This document shows positions 28,983 to 59,866 of a DNA stretch of 64,000 nucleotides, in pieces. Source of the stretch: Escherichia phage vB_EcoM_3HA11; the sequence record MN342150; one strand, 5' to 3'. Numbering within the stretch: the first letter of the stretch is position 1; every line of letters starts with the position of its first letter. The translations under genes and the position numbers were made by a program. The notes under the pieces were generated by a model, which saw only the letters and a program-made list of their open reading frames with translations, had not been told where the DNA came from and ran no database searches.

Positions 28983-29007
28983 ATTTAAAATTTATTCAAT
29001 AAACGGG

Positions 29008-39751: not shown

Positions 39752-40975
39752 ATGAAAGATAAACCGTGTGACATTCCTTATTGCGGTGTTCGGGAAGCTA
39801 AAATTAAATCTGCACATCCCATGTTAAGCCCATTCCATAAACAACTCGCATACGAATGGATGAGCGAGCGCTATAAGATCCACGTGAGAAAGGACGTCCA
39901 GCGTCTTCCTGCTCCTTGGACGGATAATCCCATACTACGGCAGGTCAAGTTCTGTAACGTCCGGAGAGAGCACGACAGGCAGTCTCTTAACCTGATCAAT
40001 AATATTGTCAAGAACGATGCTCTGGGCATGGCAGACAAGATGTTCAACTGCGTGTTGTTCCGCATGTTCAACCTCTGGGATCCTATCAAGGCTATCGGCG
40101 GTGCTCGCACGATCAAAGAGTTCGCAAACATCGATCTTGATGTAACCCGCAATCAACTTCAGGAATTTGAGGCCAATGGTGGTAAAGTGTTCACCAATGC
40201 ATTCAACACAGGCGGTCTAAAACAATGTCTGGCGTTCCCTGAACTTGTTGTCAACCACAAGGAGCAGCGCTTCGGTGGGATGATGGTTAAGGTACACCGT
40301 GTTGGCCAGGGTGTCGTGGATGAATTGGATTACAAGGTCGCCAAGAAGCTGGTTGAAGAGAATCCTGGGGAGTACACGATTGAGGGTTGGGAGCCGTACA
40401 TGCCAATGCGTGTCATCCGCTCTTTGAAGGCATTCGTCAACAAGTACCCCGATTACTTCAATGATCTTTTACGTCTTGACTCTCCGCTGAAAGTTTACCA
40501 GCGCATGTATGACGACATTGAAGGGCTTGGGCCATTCCTGGCATATCAGATCTGGGTGGACTTCACATACATCCCTGAGTATCCATTCAGTGAGAATCAT
40601 TTCACTATTGCTGGTCCAGGTTGCCGTGCGGGTATTGACCTGATGTTCCTGGATAAGGACGGCATGACTCATGAAGAATGCATCTTCTGGATTCGAGATC
40701 ACCAGTATCAAATGTTTGCTCAGTATGGTTATGTCCGAGAGCAGTTCTGGTCAGCCGAAGCGCCGGAAGATCAGTGCATGAACGTCATGCAGCTGGAGAA
40801 CATGTTCTGTGAATTGAGCAAGTACACCCGCTGTGTTGAGGCCATCGAGAGAGGAGAAAAGCCACGCGGCAAGGTCGGTTATGATGGAGGCGGGGAATAC
40901 AAAAAGCGATGCGATGAAGTTGTCCTCAATCGCGGATCGGTCAATTTGTTAGATCGTTTGAAGAAACCTGAATAA
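39752..40975 (+). CDS. HhH-GPD (DNA glycosylase-like) superfamily protein with Cys cluster
   Basis: Helix-hairpin-helix IEGLGPFLAYQI followed ~25 aa later by Gly/Pro loop and Asp (TIAGPGCRAGID); four C-terminal Cys (C-x10-C-x7-C-x25-C) possibly a metal/Fe-S site. Confidence 0.4.
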   Translation: MKDKPCDIPYCGVREAKIKSAHPMLSPFHKQLAYEWMSERYKIHVRKDVQRLPAPWTDNPILRQVKFCNVRREHDRQSLNLINNIVKNDALGMADKMFNCVLFRMFNLWDPIKAIGGARTIKEFANIDLDVTRNQLQEFEANGGKVFTNAFNTGGLKQCLAFPELVVNHKEQRFGGMMVKVHRVGQGVVDELDYKVAKKLVEENPGEYTIEGWEPYMPMRVIRSLKAFVNKYPDYFNDLLRLDSPLKVYQRMYDDIEGLGPFLAYQIWVDFTYIPEYPFSENHFTIAGPGCRAGIDLMFLDKDGMTHEECIFWIRDHQYQMFAQYGYVREQFWSAEAPEDQCMNVMQLENMFCELSKYTRCVEAIERGEKPRGKVGYDGGGEYKKRCDEVVLNRGSVNLLDRLKKPE

Positions 40976-41088: not shown

Positions 41089-43110
41089 ATGGCAGAATTC
41101 AAACCCTTCGCAACAGCAGTTAATAACAACGTTCTGGCGATGTCCGCAACTGGTCTGTTCATGACCAATATCGATAAAGATGCTCTTTGGGATCTGTATC
41201 TGGCATCTTTCCCTGCTGGTACTAACCCGCTGTACCGCGAACGTACTGAACACGATTGCACCTGCTGTAAACAATTCATCCGTAACATCGGCGGTGTTGT
41301 CACCATCGATTCAGAACTGAACGTAATTTCTATCTGGGACAACATTGATCTGGGTAATGAATATGACGTGGTGGCTGCGGCTCTTTCCGCGTATGTTAAA
41401 CAACACGCAATCGTCGATGTTTATTTTAACGATTCTGCCAAAGTCGGCCTGTCTCACAATCACGAATCTGGTGAAGATGGCAAAATCCGTACTTACAATC
41501 ATTTCCATACCCAATTACTTGGTAGCTATGTTCTGCGTCCGGACGCAATCGCTTCGAAAAAAGGTGAAATCCGCCAGGCTATTGAATTGTTTGAACGCGG
41601 TCTGCGTGAAATTACTCTGGAATCAGCTGAAATCGTTCTGGAACTGATTGACCAGAATTCTCTGTATCGCGGCGCAGAACACAAAGCAGCAGTGAAGGGA
41701 TTCGTTGAAACCAAAAAGGCATATGAACAAATCCCCGAATCAGCCCGTTCTCTGTGGACATGGCATACTGGATACCGTTCAAACAATCATGTTCCACACG
41801 GCATCCGTAACACAGTTATCGGCACTCTGCTGACAGATATCAGCGAAGGCGTGGAACTGGAAAAGGCTGTTAAGTCGTTTGAATCCAAAGTTGCTCCGGC
41901 GAACTACAAACGTCCGACAGCGCTGGTTTCAAAATCCATGATCGAAAACGCTCAGAAAGAAGTTATTGCTCTGGGTTTGGAAGACTCACTGGCGCGTCGT
42001 TATGCGGTTTATGATGACCTGACGATCAACAACGTTTTGTTCGCAGATCTGGCCGCTCAGAAAGCGATGGATCCGTTTGCACAGCTGGCCGCAGAAGTGA
42101 AAACTCCGACTAAGTCCTTAGAAAAAGTTGAAGAGATCAGCGTTGATGATTTCCTGAGCAATGTTCTACCAAAAGCGCATTCAATGGAAGTGCTGGTAGA
42201 GAATTCTCATACCAGCAACCTGATGTCCCTGGTTGCTCCGGCGAACCCAGATGCACCTAACCTGTTCAAGTGGAACAACGGTTTCTCCTGGTCTTACAAC
42301 GGTGAAGTGACCGATTCCATTAAAGAACGTGTAAAAGCTGCTGGTGGTAAAGTTGACGGGTATCTGCGCGTTTCCTTGGCGTGGCACAATAACGACGACC
42401 TCGATCTGCATATGTTCTTTAACAATATGGAGCACGTTTACTTCCGTGATCGTCGCTCTATGACAGGTGCCCATCTGGATATCGATATGAACGGTATGGA
42501 TGGTATCGATCCAAACCGCGCTCCGGTGGAAAATATCATCTTTACAGATGAAAGCAAGCTGCGCGATGGTGAATACCGTTTCGAAATCCACAACTACAAT
42601 CAACGTGAAAAGATCGACGAAGGGTTTGAAGTCGAAGTAGAATACAAAGGCGCAACGCATCGTTTCAGCCATCCCGGCCTGAAAGATCAGGGGCGTATCA
42701 CTGCAGTCATCCTGACTGTTAAAGACAAACAAGTTGTTGGCATTAAGTCCGAACTGGCTAATGTTGATAAGTCTAAAGAAGTTTGGGGTATCAAGACTGC
42801 GACCTTCCAGAAAGTACAGCTGGTCCTGAATTCACCAAACCATTGGGATGGGGAGCAAACTGGTAACAAGCATGTGTTCTTCATTCTTGAAGGTTGTGCT
42901 AATCCTGAAGGTACTCGTGGTTTCTACAACGAATATCTGAAGCCAGAACTGGATAAACATCGTAAGGTTTTTGAAATGTTGGGTAGTAAAATGAAAGTCC
43001 AGCCGAATGAAAACCAACTGTCCGGTCTGGGATTCTCGACGACGCAACGCAACCACGTGTTCGTCAAAGTGTCCGGCGCGTTTAACCGTACTGTAAAAGT
43101 CATTTTCTAA
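41089..43110 (+). CDS. Hypothetical large protein (673 aa)
   Basis: Long ORF with RBS-like GGAAG; no confident motif (N-terminal HDCTCCKQF Cys cluster). Confidence 0.5.
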   Translation: MAEFKPFATAVNNNVLAMSATGLFMTNIDKDALWDLYLASFPAGTNPLYRERTEHDCTCCKQFIRNIGGVVTIDSELNVISIWDNIDLGNEYDVVAAALSAYVKQHAIVDVYFNDSAKVGLSHNHESGEDGKIRTYNHFHTQLLGSYVLRPDAIASKKGEIRQAIELFERGLREITLESAEIVLELIDQNSLYRGAEHKAAVKGFVETKKAYEQIPESARSLWTWHTGYRSNNHVPHGIRNTVIGTLLTDISEGVELEKAVKSFESKVAPANYKRPTALVSKSMIENAQKEVIALGLEDSLARRYAVYDDLTINNVLFADLAAQKAMDPFAQLAAEVKTPTKSLEKVEEISVDDFLSNVLPKAHSMEVLVENSHTSNLMSLVAPANPDAPNLFKWNNGFSWSYNGEVTDSIKERVKAAGGKVDGYLRVSLAWHNNDDLDLHMFFNNMEHVYFRDRRSMTGAHLDIDMNGMDGIDPNRAPVENIIFTDESKLRDGEYRFEIHNYNQREKIDEGFEVEVEYKGATHRFSHPGLKDQGRITAVILTVKDKQVVGIKSELANVDKSKEVWGIKTATFQKVQLVLNSPNHWDGEQTGNKHVFFILEGCANPEGTRGFYNEYLKPELDKHRKVFEMLGSKMKVQPNENQLSGLGFSTTQRNHVFVKVSGAFNRTVKVIF

Positions 43111-43147: not shown

Positions 43148-43519
43148 ATGTTTGATCAAGCAACCCGTTTAAAACTGCGTTTCAACTCTAACAAAGGTCT
43201 GCTGTCTGTTGAGCAGGTTTGGGATCTGAACCTGAATGCCCTAAACGAACTGGCGAAAGACCTCAGCCGTCAGGTGAAGGAAGCCGCCAGCGATGAAGAA
43301 GATTTCATCGGCGTGAAAAGCGCAGTCGACTCTCAGTTACAACTGCGTTTCGATATCGTGAAAGCGATCATCGGTGTTAAACTGAAAGAACGTGACGAAA
43401 GCGCAACCGCCGCCGAACGTAAAGCGAATAACCAGGCGATCATGGAACTGATCCAGCGTAAGAAACAGCAGGAACTGGAAGGCCTCTCTGTTGAAGAACT
43501 GGAAAAACTCCTGAAATAA
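43148..43519 (+). CDS. Hypothetical coiled-coil protein
   Basis: 123 aa, charged helical repeats. Confidence 0.35.
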   Translation: MFDQATRLKLRFNSNKGLLSVEQVWDLNLNALNELAKDLSRQVKEAASDEEDFIGVKSAVDSQLQLRFDIVKAIIGVKLKERDESATAAERKANNQAIMELIQRKKQQELEGLSVEELEKLLK

Positions 43520-43578
43520 TCTGTCGGCTCCGGCCTGAGCAACCCCGCTATGTGCGGGGTTTCTTTTGGAGAAATATT

Positions 43579-43815
43579 ATGAAACAAATTACTAAGACAG
43601 TACAAATCACCCAATATCAAACGGATGACGGCAGAGTGTTCGATACTCTTGGTCAGGCCGAACATTATGAGAAGATGAAGTCCGGTATTCGCAAGGTATG
43701 CTCTTCTTGTGATGGCAAAGGTCGCGACTCTCCGTCGGGCGACGGGCGTGATATGACGACTTGTCATTATTGTGGTGGTAAAGGCTGGGTAGAAAAGAAA
43801 GAGATATGGGGTTAA
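43579..43815 (+). CDS. Small zinc-finger protein (CxxC..CxxC)
   Basis: CSSCDGKG ... CHYCGGKGW motifs. Confidence 0.4.
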   Translation: MKQITKTVQITQYQTDDGRVFDTLGQAEHYEKMKSGIRKVCSSCDGKGRDSPSGDGRDMTTCHYCGGKGWVEKKEIWG

Positions 43816-44225
43816 TGAAACCTGTCATCTGTGATTACTGCGGTCAACCTGCCCAATACGTCGGGGGCGATGCTGTATACCCCCACCGCCCCGACCTCCG
43901 CAATCTGAAGTTCTGGGTATGCTCGCCATGCGACGCTCGTGTGGGTTGCCATACCCATGGGGATGGTAGACAACCTCTGGGAAGGATGGCGAATGCCGCT
44001 CTCCGTGCTGCTAAGCAGGAAGCTCATAGGTCGTTTGACCCTATCTGGAAAAGTGGGCAGAGGAGCAGGAGTGATGCTTACAGCTGGCTGGCTCATAATC
44101 TGGGGATCAAGAAGCGCGATTGCCATATCGGCTTGTTCGATATCGATATGTGCCGTAAAGTAGTCGCTGTGTGTAATCAACTAAAGGCACAAGATAATGT
44201 CAAAGGAAATACAAGAAGCATTTGA
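43806..44225 (+). CDS. Zinc-ribbon protein
   Basis: CDYCG ... CSPCDARVGCH. Confidence 0.4.
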   Translation: MGLMKPVICDYCGQPAQYVGGDAVYPHRPDLRNLKFWVCSPCDARVGCHTHGDGRQPLGRMANAALRAAKQEAHRSFDPIWKSGQRSRSDAYSWLAHNLGIKKRDCHIGLFDIDMCRKVVAVCNQLKAQDNVKGNTRSI

Positions 44226-44448
44226 AAAATTATCTCAGGTAATGACCGACTGCAACCGCCGGAATTATTGTGATGAAGCGTATACCAAATTGAAAACTGC
44301 TGTTGAAACCGAGCTGGCAGGTCTTTCCGTTTTCAAAGATATTCAGACCGAAGTGCTATATCTGTCGGATGAAGATTTAAGGCGTTGCCCCCGCAAGATT
44401 TACCAATTACTGGATCGTTTGGTGAAAGTGGGGGTGAATAATGGGTAA
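44197..44448 (+). CDS. Hypothetical protein
   Basis: 83-aa ORF. Confidence 0.3.
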   Translation: MSKEIQEAFEKLSQVMTDCNRRNYCDEAYTKLKTAVETELAGLSVFKDIQTEVLYLSDEDLRRCPRKIYQLLDRLVKVGVNNG

Positions 44449-45166
44449 TCGTGAAGGGATTAAACTCACACCAGAACTTCTGAAGTCACATATTGCTGAA
44501 GTGATTTATGAAGACCGTGAAGTTGGTGGTCACCGCGTCATTACATGCCATTTCAAGATGGACAATGGGTTCGTTGTGTGGGGTAAGAATAGTTCCACAT
44601 CGGTAGACCCTGCCAACTTCGATGAAGAAATAGGCAAGCAGCTGGCCTATGAAAAGACCCTTTCTCAACTGTGGGAACTGGAAGCATATCGCGCGATGGT
44701 AGAAAAGCAGATCATCGATGTGTCTGCCGAAGATGCTAAGATCAACATTGATGAATATGTGTCAGAAAGGGAAGCGATACATGAGATGGGTGGTTCTGAA
44801 TTTCTTAAGGGTAAAGGACAATCCATCGTGTTTCGTCATCCCAAAGATCCAAGTCGGGGATTTCGCGTTGAATTTGTTCGCACCGATAATGAACGTTATA
44901 ACGAACGACGCAATGGTGAGGCACGATCTTTGGTGGAAGCGTATCTTCGCTCGTTCATGACTTCTGAAGAACTAAATTCTGAACTTGTCTTGCGTTTGGC
45001 GAAAACGTGTAATGCTGCTTCAGGGGATTATCCGTGGTGTGACCTGTCAGAAGACAAACGCCAAGCAGCCTGTGATCGTGTTAAGAAATTCTTGTTAGAT
45101 CCGAAAGCCCAACCTGGTGATTCCGTAGGGGCACTGTATAGAGCCATTGTGGTGTCCTACTTGTAA
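44441..45166 (+). CDS. Hypothetical protein
   Basis: 241-aa ORF. Confidence 0.4.
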   Translation: MGNREGIKLTPELLKSHIAEVIYEDREVGGHRVITCHFKMDNGFVVWGKNSSTSVDPANFDEEIGKQLAYEKTLSQLWELEAYRAMVEKQIIDVSAEDAKINIDEYVSEREAIHEMGGSEFLKGKGQSIVFRHPKDPSRGFRVEFVRTDNERYNERRNGEARSLVEAYLRSFMTSEELNSELVLRLAKTCNAASGDYPWCDLSEDKRQAACDRVKKFLLDPKAQPGDSVGALYRAIVVSYL

Positions 45167-45241: not shown

Positions 45242-45433
45242 GGCCCAACTGAAAACGCGGGGGAATTTCTTTGTCCAAGCCATTCATTCGTTCCGGAGTT
45301 GATTCTCTAGACTCCCAATTTAAGCCGAGCGAAGTTTTAATCCAACAAATTGAAACCAATCGTGAATTCATAGAACACATGTTGGCAAAGCCGGAAGGTG
45401 AAGCCGCTCAAACCACCAAAGAAGGTAATAACG

Positions 45434-47650
45434 ATGATTGAATCATTAACATTTAAAAATGCGGTAGCAACCGTCGCGCCGTCTAACCATGTAATCGTTG
45501 TGGATATCTCCGGTTCCATGTACCGTTCACTTCCTGAAGTTCGCAAGCATCTGAAGGAAAATCTCCCGTCTCTGGTTAAACCAGAAGATACCGTCAGCAT
45601 TCTTTACTTTTCATCCCGTGGTGATTTCGGTACGGTATTCGCTGGCCGTCAGATCAATAGCGCGACCGATCTCAGTGAAATCAATAAACTGATTGACCGC
45701 TTCCTGCAACCGTCCGGTTGTACGGGATTTGTAGAACCTCTGAAGTTGGCTGCTGAAACCGCGTTGAGCCTGAACAAACCTGGTTATGTCAATAACCTGG
45801 CGTTCATGACCGACGGCTATGACAACTGCTGGCGCTCTAATGAAATTCTGGCAGCAGCTGAAGTACTGCCCAAGGCGTTCGATAATATTACATTCATCGA
45901 ATATGGCTGGTACTGTAACCGCGAACTTCTGGCCCTGATGTCCGAGCGTTCTGGCGCGACTCACGTGTTTGCCGAAGGTCAGACTGAATATCAGACCGAA
46001 CTGGAAAACGTACTGAAATCATCTACGCCGAAAGTGGTTGTTGATGTTCCCCTGGTTTACACTCATGCCATCTACGTTGAAAACGGCGTGGCAACTGTGC
46101 TAGCCGTACAACCAGATGAAGAACACCCGATTGGCCACGTCAGCATCCCTGAAAGCGTTTCTCAGCTGTGGGTTGTAAACCCCGACATGATCGACCAGCT
46201 GGATAATCTGGCAGACACCCAGGCGGCATACGTGCTGGCATTCTATGGCGTGTACACCATGGACGCCGATCTGGTCTGGGCCGCGCTGAAGAAGACGGGT
46301 GACGTCCGCTTCATCAAACAATACAGCAACTGTTTCACCAAGCAGGACTATTCCAACATCAAAGTCGATCTGACCCAGGCTATCGTGGATGAAACTCTGC
46401 GCGGCGTAGATGGCATCGATTACAATATGGTTCCAGCTGAAGATGCAACAACCATTGTTGATGTCTTGACCTACCTGGCCGAAGCCGATGTCTCTGTTGT
46501 CACTAAGCATCCACTGTTCTCTTACAACAGTATTGGGCGCGGTACTGTACAGAAAGTTGACGACACCGAAGACAAATTGGCCGAAGAGATTGCGAATGCG
46601 ACTTCTAAAGAAGAGCGTAAAGCCCTGGCGCTCAAACTGGCCGAGCACGAAGATTGGACGCCGGAATTTACTCCGGTTGATGACAAAGGGATTGTCCCAA
46701 TTAGCAATCTGGTCTATAATTCAGAACGTCCTAACATCAGTGTACAAACAGTTCAACACGGAACGGTTGTTGTACCCGAGTTCGTACAGAAGAAATATGA
46801 ACTTCCTGAAGAGTTGGGAACCTGGCGTTATCGCAATTACACCATTGTCAAGGATGGTATCATCAACCTGAAAACAATGCCTATTACTGCGGATTCTCCG
46901 ATTGTTCGGGCTAAGGTGGCACAGGATTTGACTGCCATGGGTGTTCATGTGTTTGGTGGACCGGAAGTCTTCATTGTAAATCTGGAAAGTGTCCCAATGG
47001 TTAACCGCGCTATGACAAAGAATATCAGTGCTGCTGAATTCTTTGCAGACAATGTGCGCCGTGAAGCATTGAAGGCGAAACAAAAAGTTCTGAAATTCTA
47101 TCGTGATGAGCTGGTTGGTAAAGGCAATGCTGCTGGTTTGGCTTCAAAATATGGCAAAGAAGCGGCTGATTTCCTGTCAGCAAACGGCATTCGCGACTAT
47201 GGATTTTCACCGAAGACTTCTTCTGTAGAATCAACTGATGTCTATATGAGTCGTGAATTGAATGTGAAAATCAAAGGCGCATCTTCACTGCCGAGCATCG
47301 CGTCTGTTATCAAAAAACAGACGGACGGTAAAAAACTGAATGTCGCTGATCAGCTGATCGCTAATGCCCTGGCTGAATACAATGCATTCGTTAAATCACC
47401 GATGATCACCAGCGTACCGGAAGAGACTCAGAAAAAGCTGATCGAAAGTTGGATTGGTGATGCAGCAAAAGCAGCTATCAACGAAGTTCGCGCTCTGAAC
47501 AAAACGCTGTCCAAGGTAGTTTATGGGATTGTTGCAGGCCATGGTTGGTTTACCGACCTGGATTTGGAAGAATCCACTATGGATGTGGAAGTTGATGGGG
47601 TGAAATACACCGTCACTGCCGAACTGGCCGAAAAAGAAGTCAAAATCTAA
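45434..47650 (+). CDS. von Willebrand factor A (vWA) domain protein with MIDAS motif
   Basis: N-terminal VIVVDISGSMY (DxSxS) followed by hydrophobic strands typical of vWA; 738 aa from ATG after AAGAAGG. Confidence 0.6.
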   Translation: MIESLTFKNAVATVAPSNHVIVVDISGSMYRSLPEVRKHLKENLPSLVKPEDTVSILYFSSRGDFGTVFAGRQINSATDLSEINKLIDRFLQPSGCTGFVEPLKLAAETALSLNKPGYVNNLAFMTDGYDNCWRSNEILAAAEVLPKAFDNITFIEYGWYCNRELLALMSERSGATHVFAEGQTEYQTELENVLKSSTPKVVVDVPLVYTHAIYVENGVATVLAVQPDEEHPIGHVSIPESVSQLWVVNPDMIDQLDNLADTQAAYVLAFYGVYTMDADLVWAALKKTGDVRFIKQYSNCFTKQDYSNIKVDLTQAIVDETLRGVDGIDYNMVPAEDATTIVDVLTYLAEADVSVVTKHPLFSYNSIGRGTVQKVDDTEDKLAEEIANATSKEERKALALKLAEHEDWTPEFTPVDDKGIVPISNLVYNSERPNISVQTVQHGTVVVPEFVQKKYELPEELGTWRYRNYTIVKDGIINLKTMPITADSPIVRAKVAQDLTAMGVHVFGGPEVFIVNLESVPMVNRAMTKNISAAEFFADNVRREALKAKQKVLKFYRDELVGKGNAAGLASKYGKEAADFLSANGIRDYGFSPKTSSVESTDVYMSRELNVKIKGASSLPSIASVIKKQTDGKKLNVADQLIANALAEYNAFVKSPMITSVPEETQKKLIESWIGDAAKAAINEVRALNKTLSKVVYGIVAGHGWFTDLDLEESTMDVEVDGVKYTVTAELAEKEVKI

Positions 47651-47693
47651 ATTCATCTGGCGGGGAAACCCGCCTTCATTTTGAGATATGCTT

Positions 47694-48005
47694 ATGTCAA
47701 ACAAACCAACTTATGTTGAAGTAATGCGTGTTCTGGCTCAGTACGCTTGTGACAACCTGAACATGGAAACTTGGCGCGACGGTGACCATAAAGAAAAGTT
47801 CGATAATATCGACGACAACATCGATGCGTTGGCTCCTCTTCGGGCCAAGAGCGATCTCGGCGGTGATGATCTTGACATGATTGAACTCATCATGGAAGTT
47901 GAAGAACAATATGATGTTGAAATCAGTGATGAATGGGTAGGCAAACATGGTGATGATCCCACGCTCGGCGAATTAGCTGAATTGGTAGTTGCCCTCCGCA
48001 AATAG
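47694..48005 (+). CDS. Acyl-carrier-protein-like protein lacking the phosphopantetheinyl Ser
   Basis: DLGGDDLDMIELIMEVEEQYDVEISDE aligns with E. coli ACP [27 protein letters not shown], but the conserved Ser of DSL is Asp. Confidence 0.5.
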   Translation: MSNKPTYVEVMRVLAQYACDNLNMETWRDGDHKEKFDNIDDNIDALAPLRAKSDLGGDDLDMIELIMEVEEQYDVEISDEWVGKHGDDPTLGELAELVVALRK

Positions 48006-57466: not shown

Positions 57467-58248
57467 GGATTATCACAATGGGTATGAATTTTGTAGACAG
57501 AGGTGATAACGTCACCAAATATTTCACAGACGAAGATAACGATCGAGTTGTGGGGATATTGCGTGATTGGATCCCTGCTCGTAAAAAGGCATTAGCCGAA
57601 GGAACACCCCTACCAAGAATCCCCAATTATGTGGCCATGAATGTTCAGATGATTATTAAGAACATGAGTATGCGCTACAACTATCGTGATTATCCATACC
57701 GCGAAGACATGGTCAGTGAGGCCGTTGTCAACATCCTTCGTTACCTCCATACATTTGATGTCAGTCATATTGGCAAGAAAGGAAAAATCAATTTTTTCTC
57801 TTGGGTAACGATGTGCGCCGACCGTTCATTCGCCAAGAAACTCACCAGTGAAGAAGAACACAATTATATCAAGTTGCGTTCCTTTGAAGAAGCAGGTGGG
57901 TTCGCTGCATTATCGGATGACCCAGACTTCCAACAACAAACCTTCGTTGATAGCACTGGGATAACGATGGACTTTCGTGAGCGTATCGGAAATTTTGAAA
58001 CTAAGAAAGAAGCCCAGCGCGAAAAGGAACGCCAAAAGCAAATCGCCATCAAAGAAGAGGAAAAGAATAAGAAAATTCCTCGCGGTATACTTCAATGTCT
58101 CACAAAGAGTGAAAATACCATTACCGCCGACGCCGAAGATAATTCAGACCATGACTTCGGCTCTACTCAATTTAGTCTTGAAGATATAATGGACAGCCCC
58201 ACATTGTTAGCCGAATCAGTTGGAGAAAAGAATAATGGCGATTGCTAA
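57463..58248 (+). CDS. Late-transcription sigma factor gp55-like (tentative)
   Basis: 261 aa; adjacent to gp47/gp46-like genes (T4 gene 55 neighbours 47); acidic C-terminal tail; assignment mainly positional. Confidence 0.35.
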   Translation: MRIITMGMNFVDRGDNVTKYFTDEDNDRVVGILRDWIPARKKALAEGTPLPRIPNYVAMNVQMIIKNMSMRYNYRDYPYREDMVSEAVVNILRYLHTFDVSHIGKKGKINFFSWVTMCADRSFAKKLTSEEEHNYIKLRSFEEAGGFAALSDDPDFQQQTFVDSTGITMDFRERIGNFETKKEAQREKERQKQIAIKEEEKNKKIPRGILQCLTKSENTITADAEDNSDHDFGSTQFSLEDIMDSPTLLAESVGEKNNGDC

Positions 58249-58487
58249 AATTGGCGATTTACACATCGGGAGCCGCAATGGTTCCCGTTACGTTCGTGAA
58301 TTCATAAAGAATTATCTCATCAACTATTTTATTCCCGAATTGGTAGATGCAGACATTAAAGAAGTTTGGCAATTCGGCGACACATTTGATGTTCGTAAAT
58401 TTATGTACGGGCGCGACAAAGATTGGTTGAAAGATGAACTGACGCCAGCCCTGAGAAAGGCGGGTATCAAATGGAATGGCATCGTTG

Positions 58488-59001
58488 GAAACCATGATAT
58501 CACCTTAGAAGAATCTAACCGTATCAACTGGCCATCCTATCTGAATGAATTAGCGCCAGACGTCTATCATTATTACAGTGAACCCACTGAAGTTTCGATT
58601 GAAGGCGAAAAGGTATTGCTTCTCCCATGGATCAATAAAGAGAATTATGATGCATCTGTTAAAGCGATACAAGATACAGACGCCAAGTACTGTTTTGCGC
58701 ATCTGGAGTTGGCAGGGTTCAAAATGTACCAGTCCTCTGTATGTGATAAAGGTCAGATCGACGTGGCGCTCCTTTCCAAGTTCGAACGCGTGGATACCGG
58801 ACATTTCCATACCCGTTCGATGGAAGGTAACATTCAGTATATTGGGACTCCTTATCACCTTACCTGGGAAGACCATAAAGACGGGACGAACCGAGGATTC
58901 TATGTAGACGATATGAAAGGTGGGGAATTGTTTATTCCCAACAGCGAGCAACAAACGTTGTTCCGATTCATAGAATACGATTACACCCAAATGTCTTCCG
59001 A
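58488..59001 (+). repeat. Tandem direct repeat, copy 1 (514 bp)
   Basis: Identical to 59002..59515; ORF pairs 58550..59041 / 59064..59504 and 58578..58907 / 59092..59421 are offset by exactly 514 bp. Confidence 0.85.
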
Positions 59002-59515
59002 GAAACCATGATATCACCTTAGAAGAATCTAACCGTATCAACTGGCCATCCTATCTGAATGAATTAGCGCCAGACGTCTATCATTATTACAGTGAACCCA
59101 CTGAAGTTTCGATTGAAGGCGAAAAGGTATTGCTTCTCCCATGGATCAATAAAGAGAATTATGATGCATCTGTTAAAGCGATACAAGATACAGACGCCAA
59201 GTACTGTTTTGCGCATCTGGAGTTGGCAGGGTTCAAAATGTACCAGTCCTCTGTATGTGATAAAGGTCAGATCGACGTGGCGCTCCTTTCCAAGTTCGAA
59301 CGCGTGGATACCGGACATTTCCATACCCGTTCGATGGAAGGTAACATTCAGTATATTGGGACTCCTTATCACCTTACCTGGGAAGACCATAAAGACGGGA
59401 CGAACCGAGGATTCTATGTAGACGATATGAAAGGTGGGGAATTGTTTATTCCCAACAGCGAGCAACAAACGTTGTTCCGATTCATAGAATACGATTACAC
59501 CCAAATGTCTTCCGA
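59002..59515 (+). repeat. Tandem direct repeat, copy 2 (514 bp)
   Basis: See copy 1. Confidence 0.85.
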
Positions 59516-59866
59516 CACCGAAGGAAATTGGATAGACCCAGATTGGTTAAACAATGATTTGGGTATTGAAGGACAAATCGTTAAGGTGATTGTACAGAAC
59601 CGTGATAATGCTAAGCATTATGAAAAGTTCTGCGACGCGCTGAAGCGTTGTAAATGCATCGATTATAACTTTATAGACCGGACTATCACAGTTGCGTCTG
59701 AGAAGGTAGAAGTCACTGAAGAGATGGTGGCGACTGATGCTGTGGAAGTCCTGAAGAAAGATATCCGCGCCGCCAATAATATCCAGCGCCCTGAAAATGT
59801 TTGCAAATTAGCAGAACAATTCTATAATGCTGCCCAACAACGCCTGAACACATTGGATGCATAATA

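Follow-up and report, generated by a model that had tools for sequence, protein, structure and literature searches.

A 738-residue vWA protein with an intact MIDAS motif and a conserved C-terminal module in Escherichia phage vB_EcoM_3HA11

Introduction

What does a large phage protein do with a vWA domain when no partner ATPase is evident beside its gene? This question is raised by Escherichia phage vB_EcoM_3HA11, of which a stretch of 64,000 nucleotides (sequence record MN342150; hereafter the window) was analyzed. At 45434..47650 on the + strand, stop codon included, the window carries a coding sequence with an ATG start for a 738-residue protein. An earlier note on this DNA had read its N-terminal part as a vWA domain with a MIDAS motif (metal ion-dependent adhesion site), followed by a long C-terminal extension, and had placed the gene in an early region among uncharacterized genes, outside the T4 core. 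In the explanation that we favor, with a rough probability of 50%, the protein is a soluble, intracellular, non-structural, metal-ion-dependent protein-binding adaptor that acts without a dedicated ATPase.

Results

The gene encodes a vWA protein with an intact MIDAS motif

The reading frame is open from 45398 to 47650 on the + strand, and the ATG at 45434 yields exactly 738 residues. AGAAGG is located 8 nt 5′ of this ATG, and the equivalent codon is the start chosen in GenBank homologues, including the near-identical barely_56 ("putative vWa containing protein") of Salmonella phage barely. The open reading frame (ORF) listing, the upstream AGAAGG, and the GenBank start thus agree with the gene boundaries given in the earlier note. 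The nucleotide identity of the gene was 98.2% to barely_56 and 92–94% to many other Kuttervirus genomes; because of this identity, the window was assigned to an Ackermannviridae genome (Kuttervirus, ViI-like) and not to T4.

Pfam VWA (PF00092) matched residues 20–183 with an E-value of 7.7e-7 (29.9 bits against a gathering score of 23.8), and VWA_2 was matched by 45 of 47 homologues. Residues 24–29 read DISGSM. In an alignment of 47 homologues with 33–98% identity, all five MIDAS positions were invariant, namely D24, S26, and S28 (D24-x-S26-x-S28, encoded at nt 45503-45517), T97 (nt 45722-45724), and D127 (nt 45812-45814), all on the + strand. The DxSxS signature was found in 237 of the 241 full-length family members, including g068 of Bacillus phage AR9; among the other four, at least three resemble N-terminally truncated gene calls, and one reads DTTGS. 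The protein also has the Rossmann-like alpha/beta fold of an A domain. Profile score, fold, and MIDAS motif together show that it is a true member of the vWA superfamily, and the N-terminal reading of the earlier note is thereby upheld in both the motif and the fold.

The vWA domain is inserted in an ArnB/YfbK/Sec23-24-type core

In the predicted model, a strand at residues 3–6 and strands at residues 200–248 flank the vWA domain, and helices at residues 250–318 come next. Residues 1–198 (45434..46027, +) comprise beta-strand 3–6 and the vWA domain proper at 17–195, whereas residues 199–249 (46028..46180, +) supply five further strands, which, with strand 3–6, make a sandwich split by the vWA insertion in the ArnB/Sec23-24 topology. 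The acidic helical domain of residues 250–350 (46181..46483, +; isoelectric point (pI) 4.1) occupies the place that the C-terminal helical bundle has in ArnB. As modeled, residues 1 to ~320 form an ArnB/YfbK/Sec23-24-type core, with strands on both sides of the inserted domain.

It has been described that ArnB consists of a beta-sandwich split by an inserted vWA domain and then a helical bundle, and that the same arrangement occurs in 4fx5, E. coli YfbK, and Sec23/24 (PMC12852372). A sequence-profile match to ArnB was obtained with an E-value of 3e-4. Six proteins were compared with it, each with two unlabeled figures: the Catenulispora vWA protein 4fx5 (22.6; 291), ITIH1 (21.5; 244), Sulfolobus ArnB (8s05; 21.2; 264), ArnE/VWA2 (5a8j; 16.8; 244), Sec24 (15.5; 299), and Sec24C (15.3; 276). 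This class of vWA proteins has no ATPase partner. The general expectation that vWA proteins pair with an ATPase, which the earlier note had voiced, therefore applies to the MoxR, chelatase, NorD, and CoxE classes, but not to the ArnB/YfbK/Sec23-24 class seen here.

The C-terminal module is conserved and specific to the family

Residues 351–738 (46484..47647, +) form a family-specific C-terminal module of mixed beta structure and long helices. A separate model of residues 250–738 reached a pLDDT of 89.8 and a pTM of 0.81, and a Foldseek search with it against viral models (BFVD) returned family members only, including a 361-residue protein of Bacillus phage SP-15. C-terminal fragments, covering the ~540 residues past the vWA domain, gave no Pfam match even at E <= 10, so the long extension noted earlier is real; Pfam searches with 47 members gave nothing consistent in the module, and NCBIfam, PADLOC, and PDB sequence searches with the C-terminal part were empty. 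Within the module, a basic helical stretch at 521–705 has a pI of 9–10, and the block at 578–626, the most conserved part outside the vWA domain, is conserved as strongly as the MIDAS region. The invariant polar residues are Y364, R432, N434, S436, N468, D474, K551, D602, Y604, and S617. Overall, the protein is acidic (pI 5.0), and no transmembrane segment or signal peptide was predicted in it; we infer a soluble protein that would act inside the cell, in the cytoplasm.

The family is essentially restricted to phages

A tblastn search with the full-length protein matched 503 phage records. Identity was 55–99% in many genera of the Ackermannviridae, 48% in RB43-, KP15-, and GAP161-like Straboviridae, 36% in Pseudomonas phage pf16, about 23–27% in Rhizobium T4-like phages, and 25% in Bacillus phage AR9/PBS1 g068; IMG/VR adds family-bearing contigs of 230–450 kb. 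When a profile of the C-terminal 388 residues was searched against 1.84 billion representative proteins (clusters at 50% identity), 1,300 clusters were found at E <= 1e-3 and 725 at E <= 1e-30. The architecture is fixed, because nearly all of the best 150 of the ~1,300 clusters are 680–820 residues long and carry the module from about residue 350 to the end. Among the genomes of 185,579 bacterial and archaeal species, one genome each, only 5 loci were found, and at least one of these resembles a whole phage genome (178-kb contig, 48% identity). As judged by these searches, the family is essentially phage-restricted. Distant members with 35% identity were also seen on two Logan metagenome contigs of 33 and 65 kb (L089 and L090), in the company of genes for ankyrin-repeat proteins, a T2SSE ATPase, MBOAT, GDSL lipases, a ClpB/ClpX-like AAA+ protein, CinA, MgtC, EF-G, and FtsH; these contigs could come from either a huge phage or a symbiont-like genome.

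In a whole-genome comparison, barely and RB43 had 42 proteins in common, among which the vWA protein ranked highest (48% identity over 758 residues, 687 bits), above NrdA (542 bits), portal (273), major capsid protein (225), and DNA polymerase (202). This rank indicates either recent horizontal exchange or an unusually strong constraint. Two of the shared proteins, the vWA protein and a tail needle knob of the Sf6 type, are neither members of the T4 core set nor homing endonucleases; all others are one or the other. The statement that the vWA gene is not part of the T4 core is supported. In RB43, the gene of the knob protein (barely_196 versus RB43ORF128w, 43% identity) and the vWA gene are 3.3 kb apart and on opposite strands. 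The knob was considered as a partner and rejected, since it is a mobile domain with a distribution unrelated to that of the vWA protein.

The protein is nearly absent from virions, and its gene lacks the CTAAATA motif

Virion status was assessed from published mass spectrometry and annotation. In CsCl-purified virions of Kuttervirus Sajous1, mass spectrometry recorded 1 spectrum for the VWA protein gp185, compared with 1 for the adjacent acyl carrier protein (ACP), 924 for the capsid protein, and 16–125 for tail parts (PMC10892097). The AR9 homologue g068 is not among the proteins labeled "virion protein" by mass spectrometry, and the protein is not labeled structural in the Limestone-derived annotation. 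The vWA protein is therefore nearly absent from virions, its single spectrum being at the contaminant level, and homology does not make it a known structural protein.

Upstream of structural-gene start codons, by 25–45 nt, we observed a motif, (A/G)CTAAATA(c/t)c, that is enriched in intergenic DNA. Sites are located at 57, 2267, 7488, 14004, 18254, 21056, 23862, 25080, and 33927 (+); all but one of 12 occurrences lie on the + strand, and of 9 ACTAAAT copies, 8 fall between genes. The motif probably serves this phage family as its late promoter in place of T4 TATAAATA, which occurs only once in the 64-kb window. The interval from 34,000 to 63,000, and with it the 267-bp sequence upstream of the vWA gene, has no CTAAATA site, which fits non-late expression of this gene. 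A sigma-70 consensus scan found no promoter upstream of it, and our literature search found no Ackermannviridae transcriptome. In AR9, g068 has its own transcription start, and its expression values (fragments per kilobase per million) were 0.96, 105.6, and 431.5 at 5, 20, and 40 min (PMC5312081 Table S4); it belongs to the late class, yet is turned on earlier than virion genes, like UvsX (PMC5312081). Regarding the "early region" of the earlier note, non-late expression agrees with the missing motif, but early expression is not shown, and the AR9 homologue is of the late class.

No partner gene travels with the vWA gene

The genes that the earlier note had named around the vWA gene were all located. 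Two zinc-finger genes lie 1.2–1.9 kb upstream (DnaJ-type zinc ribbon, 43552-43815; DUF3268, 43806-44225), followed by a 241-residue N4 gp49-like ORF (44441-45166). Immediately downstream is the ACP gene (47688-48005, +; PP-binding, E 5.9e-7; phrog_4154). Further upstream are the genes of a 673-residue protein, p673 (41089-43110, +; phrog_1735), and a 123-residue protein, p123 (43148-43519, +; phrog_2018), and, 4.5 kb from the vWA gene, that of a 5-hmdU DNA kinase (HMUDK; 39752-40975, +; PF18723, E 3e-82). This kinase is the hallmark enzyme of thymidine hypermodification, and its gene marks the phage as one predicted to have hypermodified thymidine. The order HMUDK, p673, p123, zinc fingers, N4 gp49-like, vWA, ACP, and so on to the spanins is kept within Ackermannviridae. 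In barely, a homing endonuclease gene sits between the HMUDK and p673 genes; the window is without it.

When 16 window proteins were searched by tblastn against 74 related loci, no neighbor was conserved beside the vWA gene in loci other than those of Ackermannviridae; the exception was one metagenomic locus (L070), in which the p673 and p123 genes stand side by side. De novo clustering of 2,130 ORFs from the 74 loci gave no cluster that tracks the vWA gene across lineages, and three further contigs likewise held no conserved neighbor. Of 24 Ackermannviridae loci, 22 have the ACP gene adjoining the vWA gene, a pairing not seen elsewhere, and no acyl-ACP-using enzyme was evident near the ACP gene. 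The zinc-finger genes, and the genes for a putative Ser/Thr phosphatase and a putative kinase that the genome also carries, are not co-conserved with the vWA gene outside Ackermannviridae. The p673 protein occurs in 558 phage records (Ackermannviridae, Vequintavirinae, N4-like, Caulobacter, and Bacillus phages, and a cyanophage) and has no Pfam or PDB match, although a few records call it "DNA-directed RNA polymerase"; a TerD/DUF2135-like C-terminus found no support in Pfam or PDB sequence searches. As a partner, p673 was rejected, since its phyletic spread differs and it is not present in RB43-like phages. The surrounding genes are linked by a synteny confined to Ackermannviridae and are not functional partners, and a co-conserved partner in related genomes, for which the earlier note had proposed a search, was found in none of the lineages covered.

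The earlier note's remark that no partner ATPase is obvious nearby proved correct on a wider scale. No MoxR-class ATPase was found among the neighbors of the vWA gene in the 74 loci, and no AAA+ ATPase of the MoxR/CobS/BchI type is annotated in the complete 157,920-bp barely genome, a statement about its annotation and not about a profile search of each ORF. Since the vWA gene has no accessory phage gene as a constant companion, its partner would most likely be a host component or a phage core protein; the set shared by barely and RB43 likewise implies that a partner, if the phage encodes it, has to belong to the core proteins, and that the partner is otherwise host-encoded.

A small ORF overlaps the start of the vWA gene

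An acidic 56-residue ORF (pI 4.6) is located directly upstream, at 45271..45441 (+); it starts with TTG here, whereas other genera use ATG. Between the TGA stop of this ORF and the vWA start codon there is an overlap (ATGATTGA), which suggests that the two genes may be translationally coupled. Across Ackermannviridae genera, conservation of the ORF is codon-periodic, the +7 stop overlap is identical in most, and the core pattern reads VL..Q.E.NR.FIE.ML. A tblastn search found it in 209 phage records (Ackermannviridae), adjoining the vWA gene wherever sampled and often called "hypothetical protein"; it is unannotated in barely. The ORF is far more variable than the vWA gene, with about 45% identity between Kuttervirus types, and RB43-like phages have an unrelated small ORF at the same position. 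From this arrangement, the 56-residue protein is a candidate lineage-specific companion or ligand of the vWA protein.

A second intergenic motif, T(T/A)TCAATAA, was found at 28996, 29018, 40997, 45188, 48079, 51298, and 53933 (+), often beside G+C-rich hairpins, and one copy lies upstream of the pair formed by the 56-residue ORF and the vWA gene. It may be a promoter or a terminator-associated element of non-late genes. A consensus scan also placed a terminator-like G+C hairpin with a T-rich tail at 47659..47674 (+), 9 nt past the vWA stop and before the ACP gene; this is weak evidence, because shuffled sequence is expected to give just as many such sites in the region.

Elsewhere in the window, we observed an exact tandem duplication of 514 bp at 58488-59515 (+), in which 58488-59001 and 59002-59515 are 100% identical. 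Because its 514 bp are not divisible by 3, the duplication breaks the gene for a gp47/Mre11-like recombination nuclease into ORFs at 58220-59011 and 59130-59864. In barely, the sequence is present in a single copy and the nuclease is intact (371 residues). Either a real variant or an artefact of assembly could account for the duplication.

Discussion

We propose that the vWA protein works as an adaptor. Its intact MIDAS would hold Mg2+, and an acidic side chain of a partner protein would complete the coordination sphere, with no dedicated AAA+ ATPase taking part. The ~390-residue C-terminal module may supply a second activity, such as binding of a second ligand, possibly nucleic acid via the basic helices, or catalysis via the invariant polar residues. 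In Ackermannviridae, the small acidic protein, putatively coupled to it in translation, might modulate or occupy the MIDAS site. Several points weigh against this proposal. The word "adaptor" follows from the fold alone, and a conserved C-terminal module with many invariant polar residues fits an enzyme too, in which the vWA domain would serve only in targeting. Some GenBank records say "minor tail protein", the late kinetics of the distant AR9 g068 would also suit a role in assembly, and the missing ATPase is a finding from annotated genes, not from a profile scan of all ORFs.

Comparison with known systems clarifies what is shared and what is not. With ArnB of Sulfolobus acidocaldarius (Saci_1211) and its paralogue ArnE/VWA2, the phage protein shares a full-MIDAS vWA domain in a beta-sandwich; the helical bundle that comes next in these proteins may have its equivalent in the acidic helical domain. 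ArnB and the phage protein are alike in lacking an ATPase partner, and ArnB acts by regulated protein–protein binding (PMC12852372). However, ArnB has about 380 residues and stops after the helical bundle, whereas the phage protein has about 390 more residues without a counterpart; sequence identity between the two is only about 17%, and no gene co-conserved with that of the phage protein takes the place of the partners of ArnB (ArnA, which is a zinc-ribbon/FHA protein, the kinase ArnC, and a phosphatase). Bacterial ArnB-like vWA proteins (Catenulispora acidiphila 4fx5 with 426 residues; the E. coli YfbK type) are shorter, lack the C-terminal module, and are cellular, whereas the phage family is almost wholly phage-borne. 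The COPII coat proteins Sec23 and Sec24 are eukaryotic membrane-coat proteins without a functional MIDAS role, and the phage protein has no zinc finger or detectable gelsolin-like domain. In Ro60/TROVE proteins, a TROVE/HEAT ring precedes the vWA domain, whereas the phage vWA domain is N-terminal and TROVE was not matched in 47 members at E <= 1; the Ku-type beta-barrel that follows the vWA domain in Ku70/80 and INTS13/14 is not present either. Among the full-length homologues, AR9 g068 has 25% identity and Escherichia phage RB43 ORF119c has 48%, across about 94–100% of the protein; the two are annotated only as vWA or hypothetical proteins, and g068 is the only member with expression data.

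The MoxR-associated and chelatase vWA proteins (BchD/ChlD, CobT, NorD, ATV p892, AR9 g028/g029) use a MIDAS vWA domain to grip a substrate protein, as proposed here, but they always come with an AAA+ partner gene, and their domains are arranged in another order. That the phage protein is itself a vWA cofactor of an AAA+ machine, of the MoxR, chelatase (BchD/CobT), or NorD type, is very improbable. One GenBank record does carry the label "magnesium chelatase"; however, no MoxR/CobS/BchI-type ATPase is annotated in barely or beside the gene in the 74 loci, the vWA domain is N-terminal here but C-terminal in BchD and CobT, and AR9 has a separate MoxR–vWA pair, g028/g029, distinct from g068 (PMC7824862). 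A virion-associated or morphogenetic protein, that is, a low-copy tail, baseplate, or ejection component or an assembly factor, would be a more serious candidate, though still an unlikely one. vWA domains serve at pilus tips and in the MoxR–vWA tail-development system of Acidianus two-tailed virus. The late expression of g068 and the peptide spectrum from Sajous1 virions would fit such a role, as would one metagenomic lineage (9 loci) in which the gene lies in a head-gene module, on the opposite strand, beside gp23-like and prohead protease genes. Against it, one spectrum is what the ACP also gave and is far below the capsid and tail counts; the protein is outside the structural labels based on mass spectrometry in AR9 and Limestone; and its context in the window is one of replication, nucleotide-metabolism, and lysis genes, with no CTAAATA upstream. 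The "minor tail protein" labels of several GenBank records, otherwise in favor of this role, seem to be unsupported automatic annotation, because phrog_2426, which matched the protein across its full length, has "unknown" in its PHROG function field.

Two further roles were considered. A platform for RNA repair or counter-defence, in the manner of the vWA-containing Ro60/Rsr-RtcB systems, would help the phage to survive host anticodon nucleases or other immune effectors; we consider it doubtful, somewhat more so than a role in the virion. RtcB is encoded at most a few kb from the family gene in four jumbo-phage loci (L054, L055, L048, and L038), a second vWA protein is encoded nearby in L054, L055, L048, L074, and L051 (IMG/VR jumbo-phage contigs), and a PHA02142-type RNA ligase gene is found two genes downstream of the family gene in L070, L033, and L060. 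RNA repair modules are common in large phages (PMC7824862), and the family is phage-restricted and apparently exchanged between lineages, as counter-defence genes often are. The second vWA protein is unrelated and has ~526 residues (L054, 14288-17341); RtcB is encoded directly beside it in L054 and L055 and nearby in L048. However, the link is seen in only about 7 of the ~50 loci outside Ackermannviridae, and tblastn with two ligase queries found no RtcB or RNA ligase in the window. The vWA protein has no TROVE or other RNA-binding Pfam domain, the second vWA protein has only the vWA domain in common with it (hhalign), and PADLOC gave no match; its 738 residues, fixed architecture, and core-gene-like conservation are unlike those of typical small, patchy anti-defence genes. 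A part in the thymidine-hypermodification pathway of ViI-like phages is suggested by the nearby HMUDK gene, the adjoining ACP gene, the order from HMUDK through p673 to vWA and ACP throughout Ackermannviridae, and relatives in AR9, which has uracil DNA, and possibly in SP-15. We give it hardly any weight, since neither HMUDK nor ACP is encoded near the vWA gene in any locus outside Ackermannviridae, RB43-like phages have the vWA protein (48%) but no HMUDK appears among the proteins that barely and RB43 share, and the terminator-like hairpin stands between the vWA and ACP genes.

A more speculative extension of the adaptor proposal, which we hold to be improbable but worth stating, concerns the C-terminal module. 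The module may have a new fold and carry an activity of its own, either as an enzyme or as a unit that binds nucleic acid, centered on R432/N434/S436, N468/D474, K551, and D602/Y604/S617, and the MIDAS domain would dock it onto a conserved host protein. The family would then be an unrecognized and widely exchanged host-takeover or counter-defence class of large phages, which comprises ~1,300 clusters and surpasses every replication and structural protein in conservation between Kuttervirus and RB43.

The N-terminal domain itself is ordinary. GenBank homologues are labeled "putative vWa containing protein" or "VWA domain-containing protein", occasionally "magnesium chelatase" or "minor tail protein"; both gene and family already have database entries, so that our observation adds no new family and opens no long-standing question. 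Our literature search found no paper on the function of the phrog_2426 vWA family. More than half of the protein is without a detectable relative in solved structures or curated families, and a structure would extend the fold map. The intact MIDAS offers an experimental handle through point mutants that abolish ligand binding. The family is large, phage-restricted, and fixed in architecture, and it extends over Ackermannviridae, some of which are used in biocontrol or phage therapy, RB43/KP15-like phages of Klebsiella and Enterobacter, AR9/PBS1, and huge phages. As the best-conserved of the proteins common to two phage families that otherwise share only T4 core genes, the vWA protein points to a function that matters during infection.

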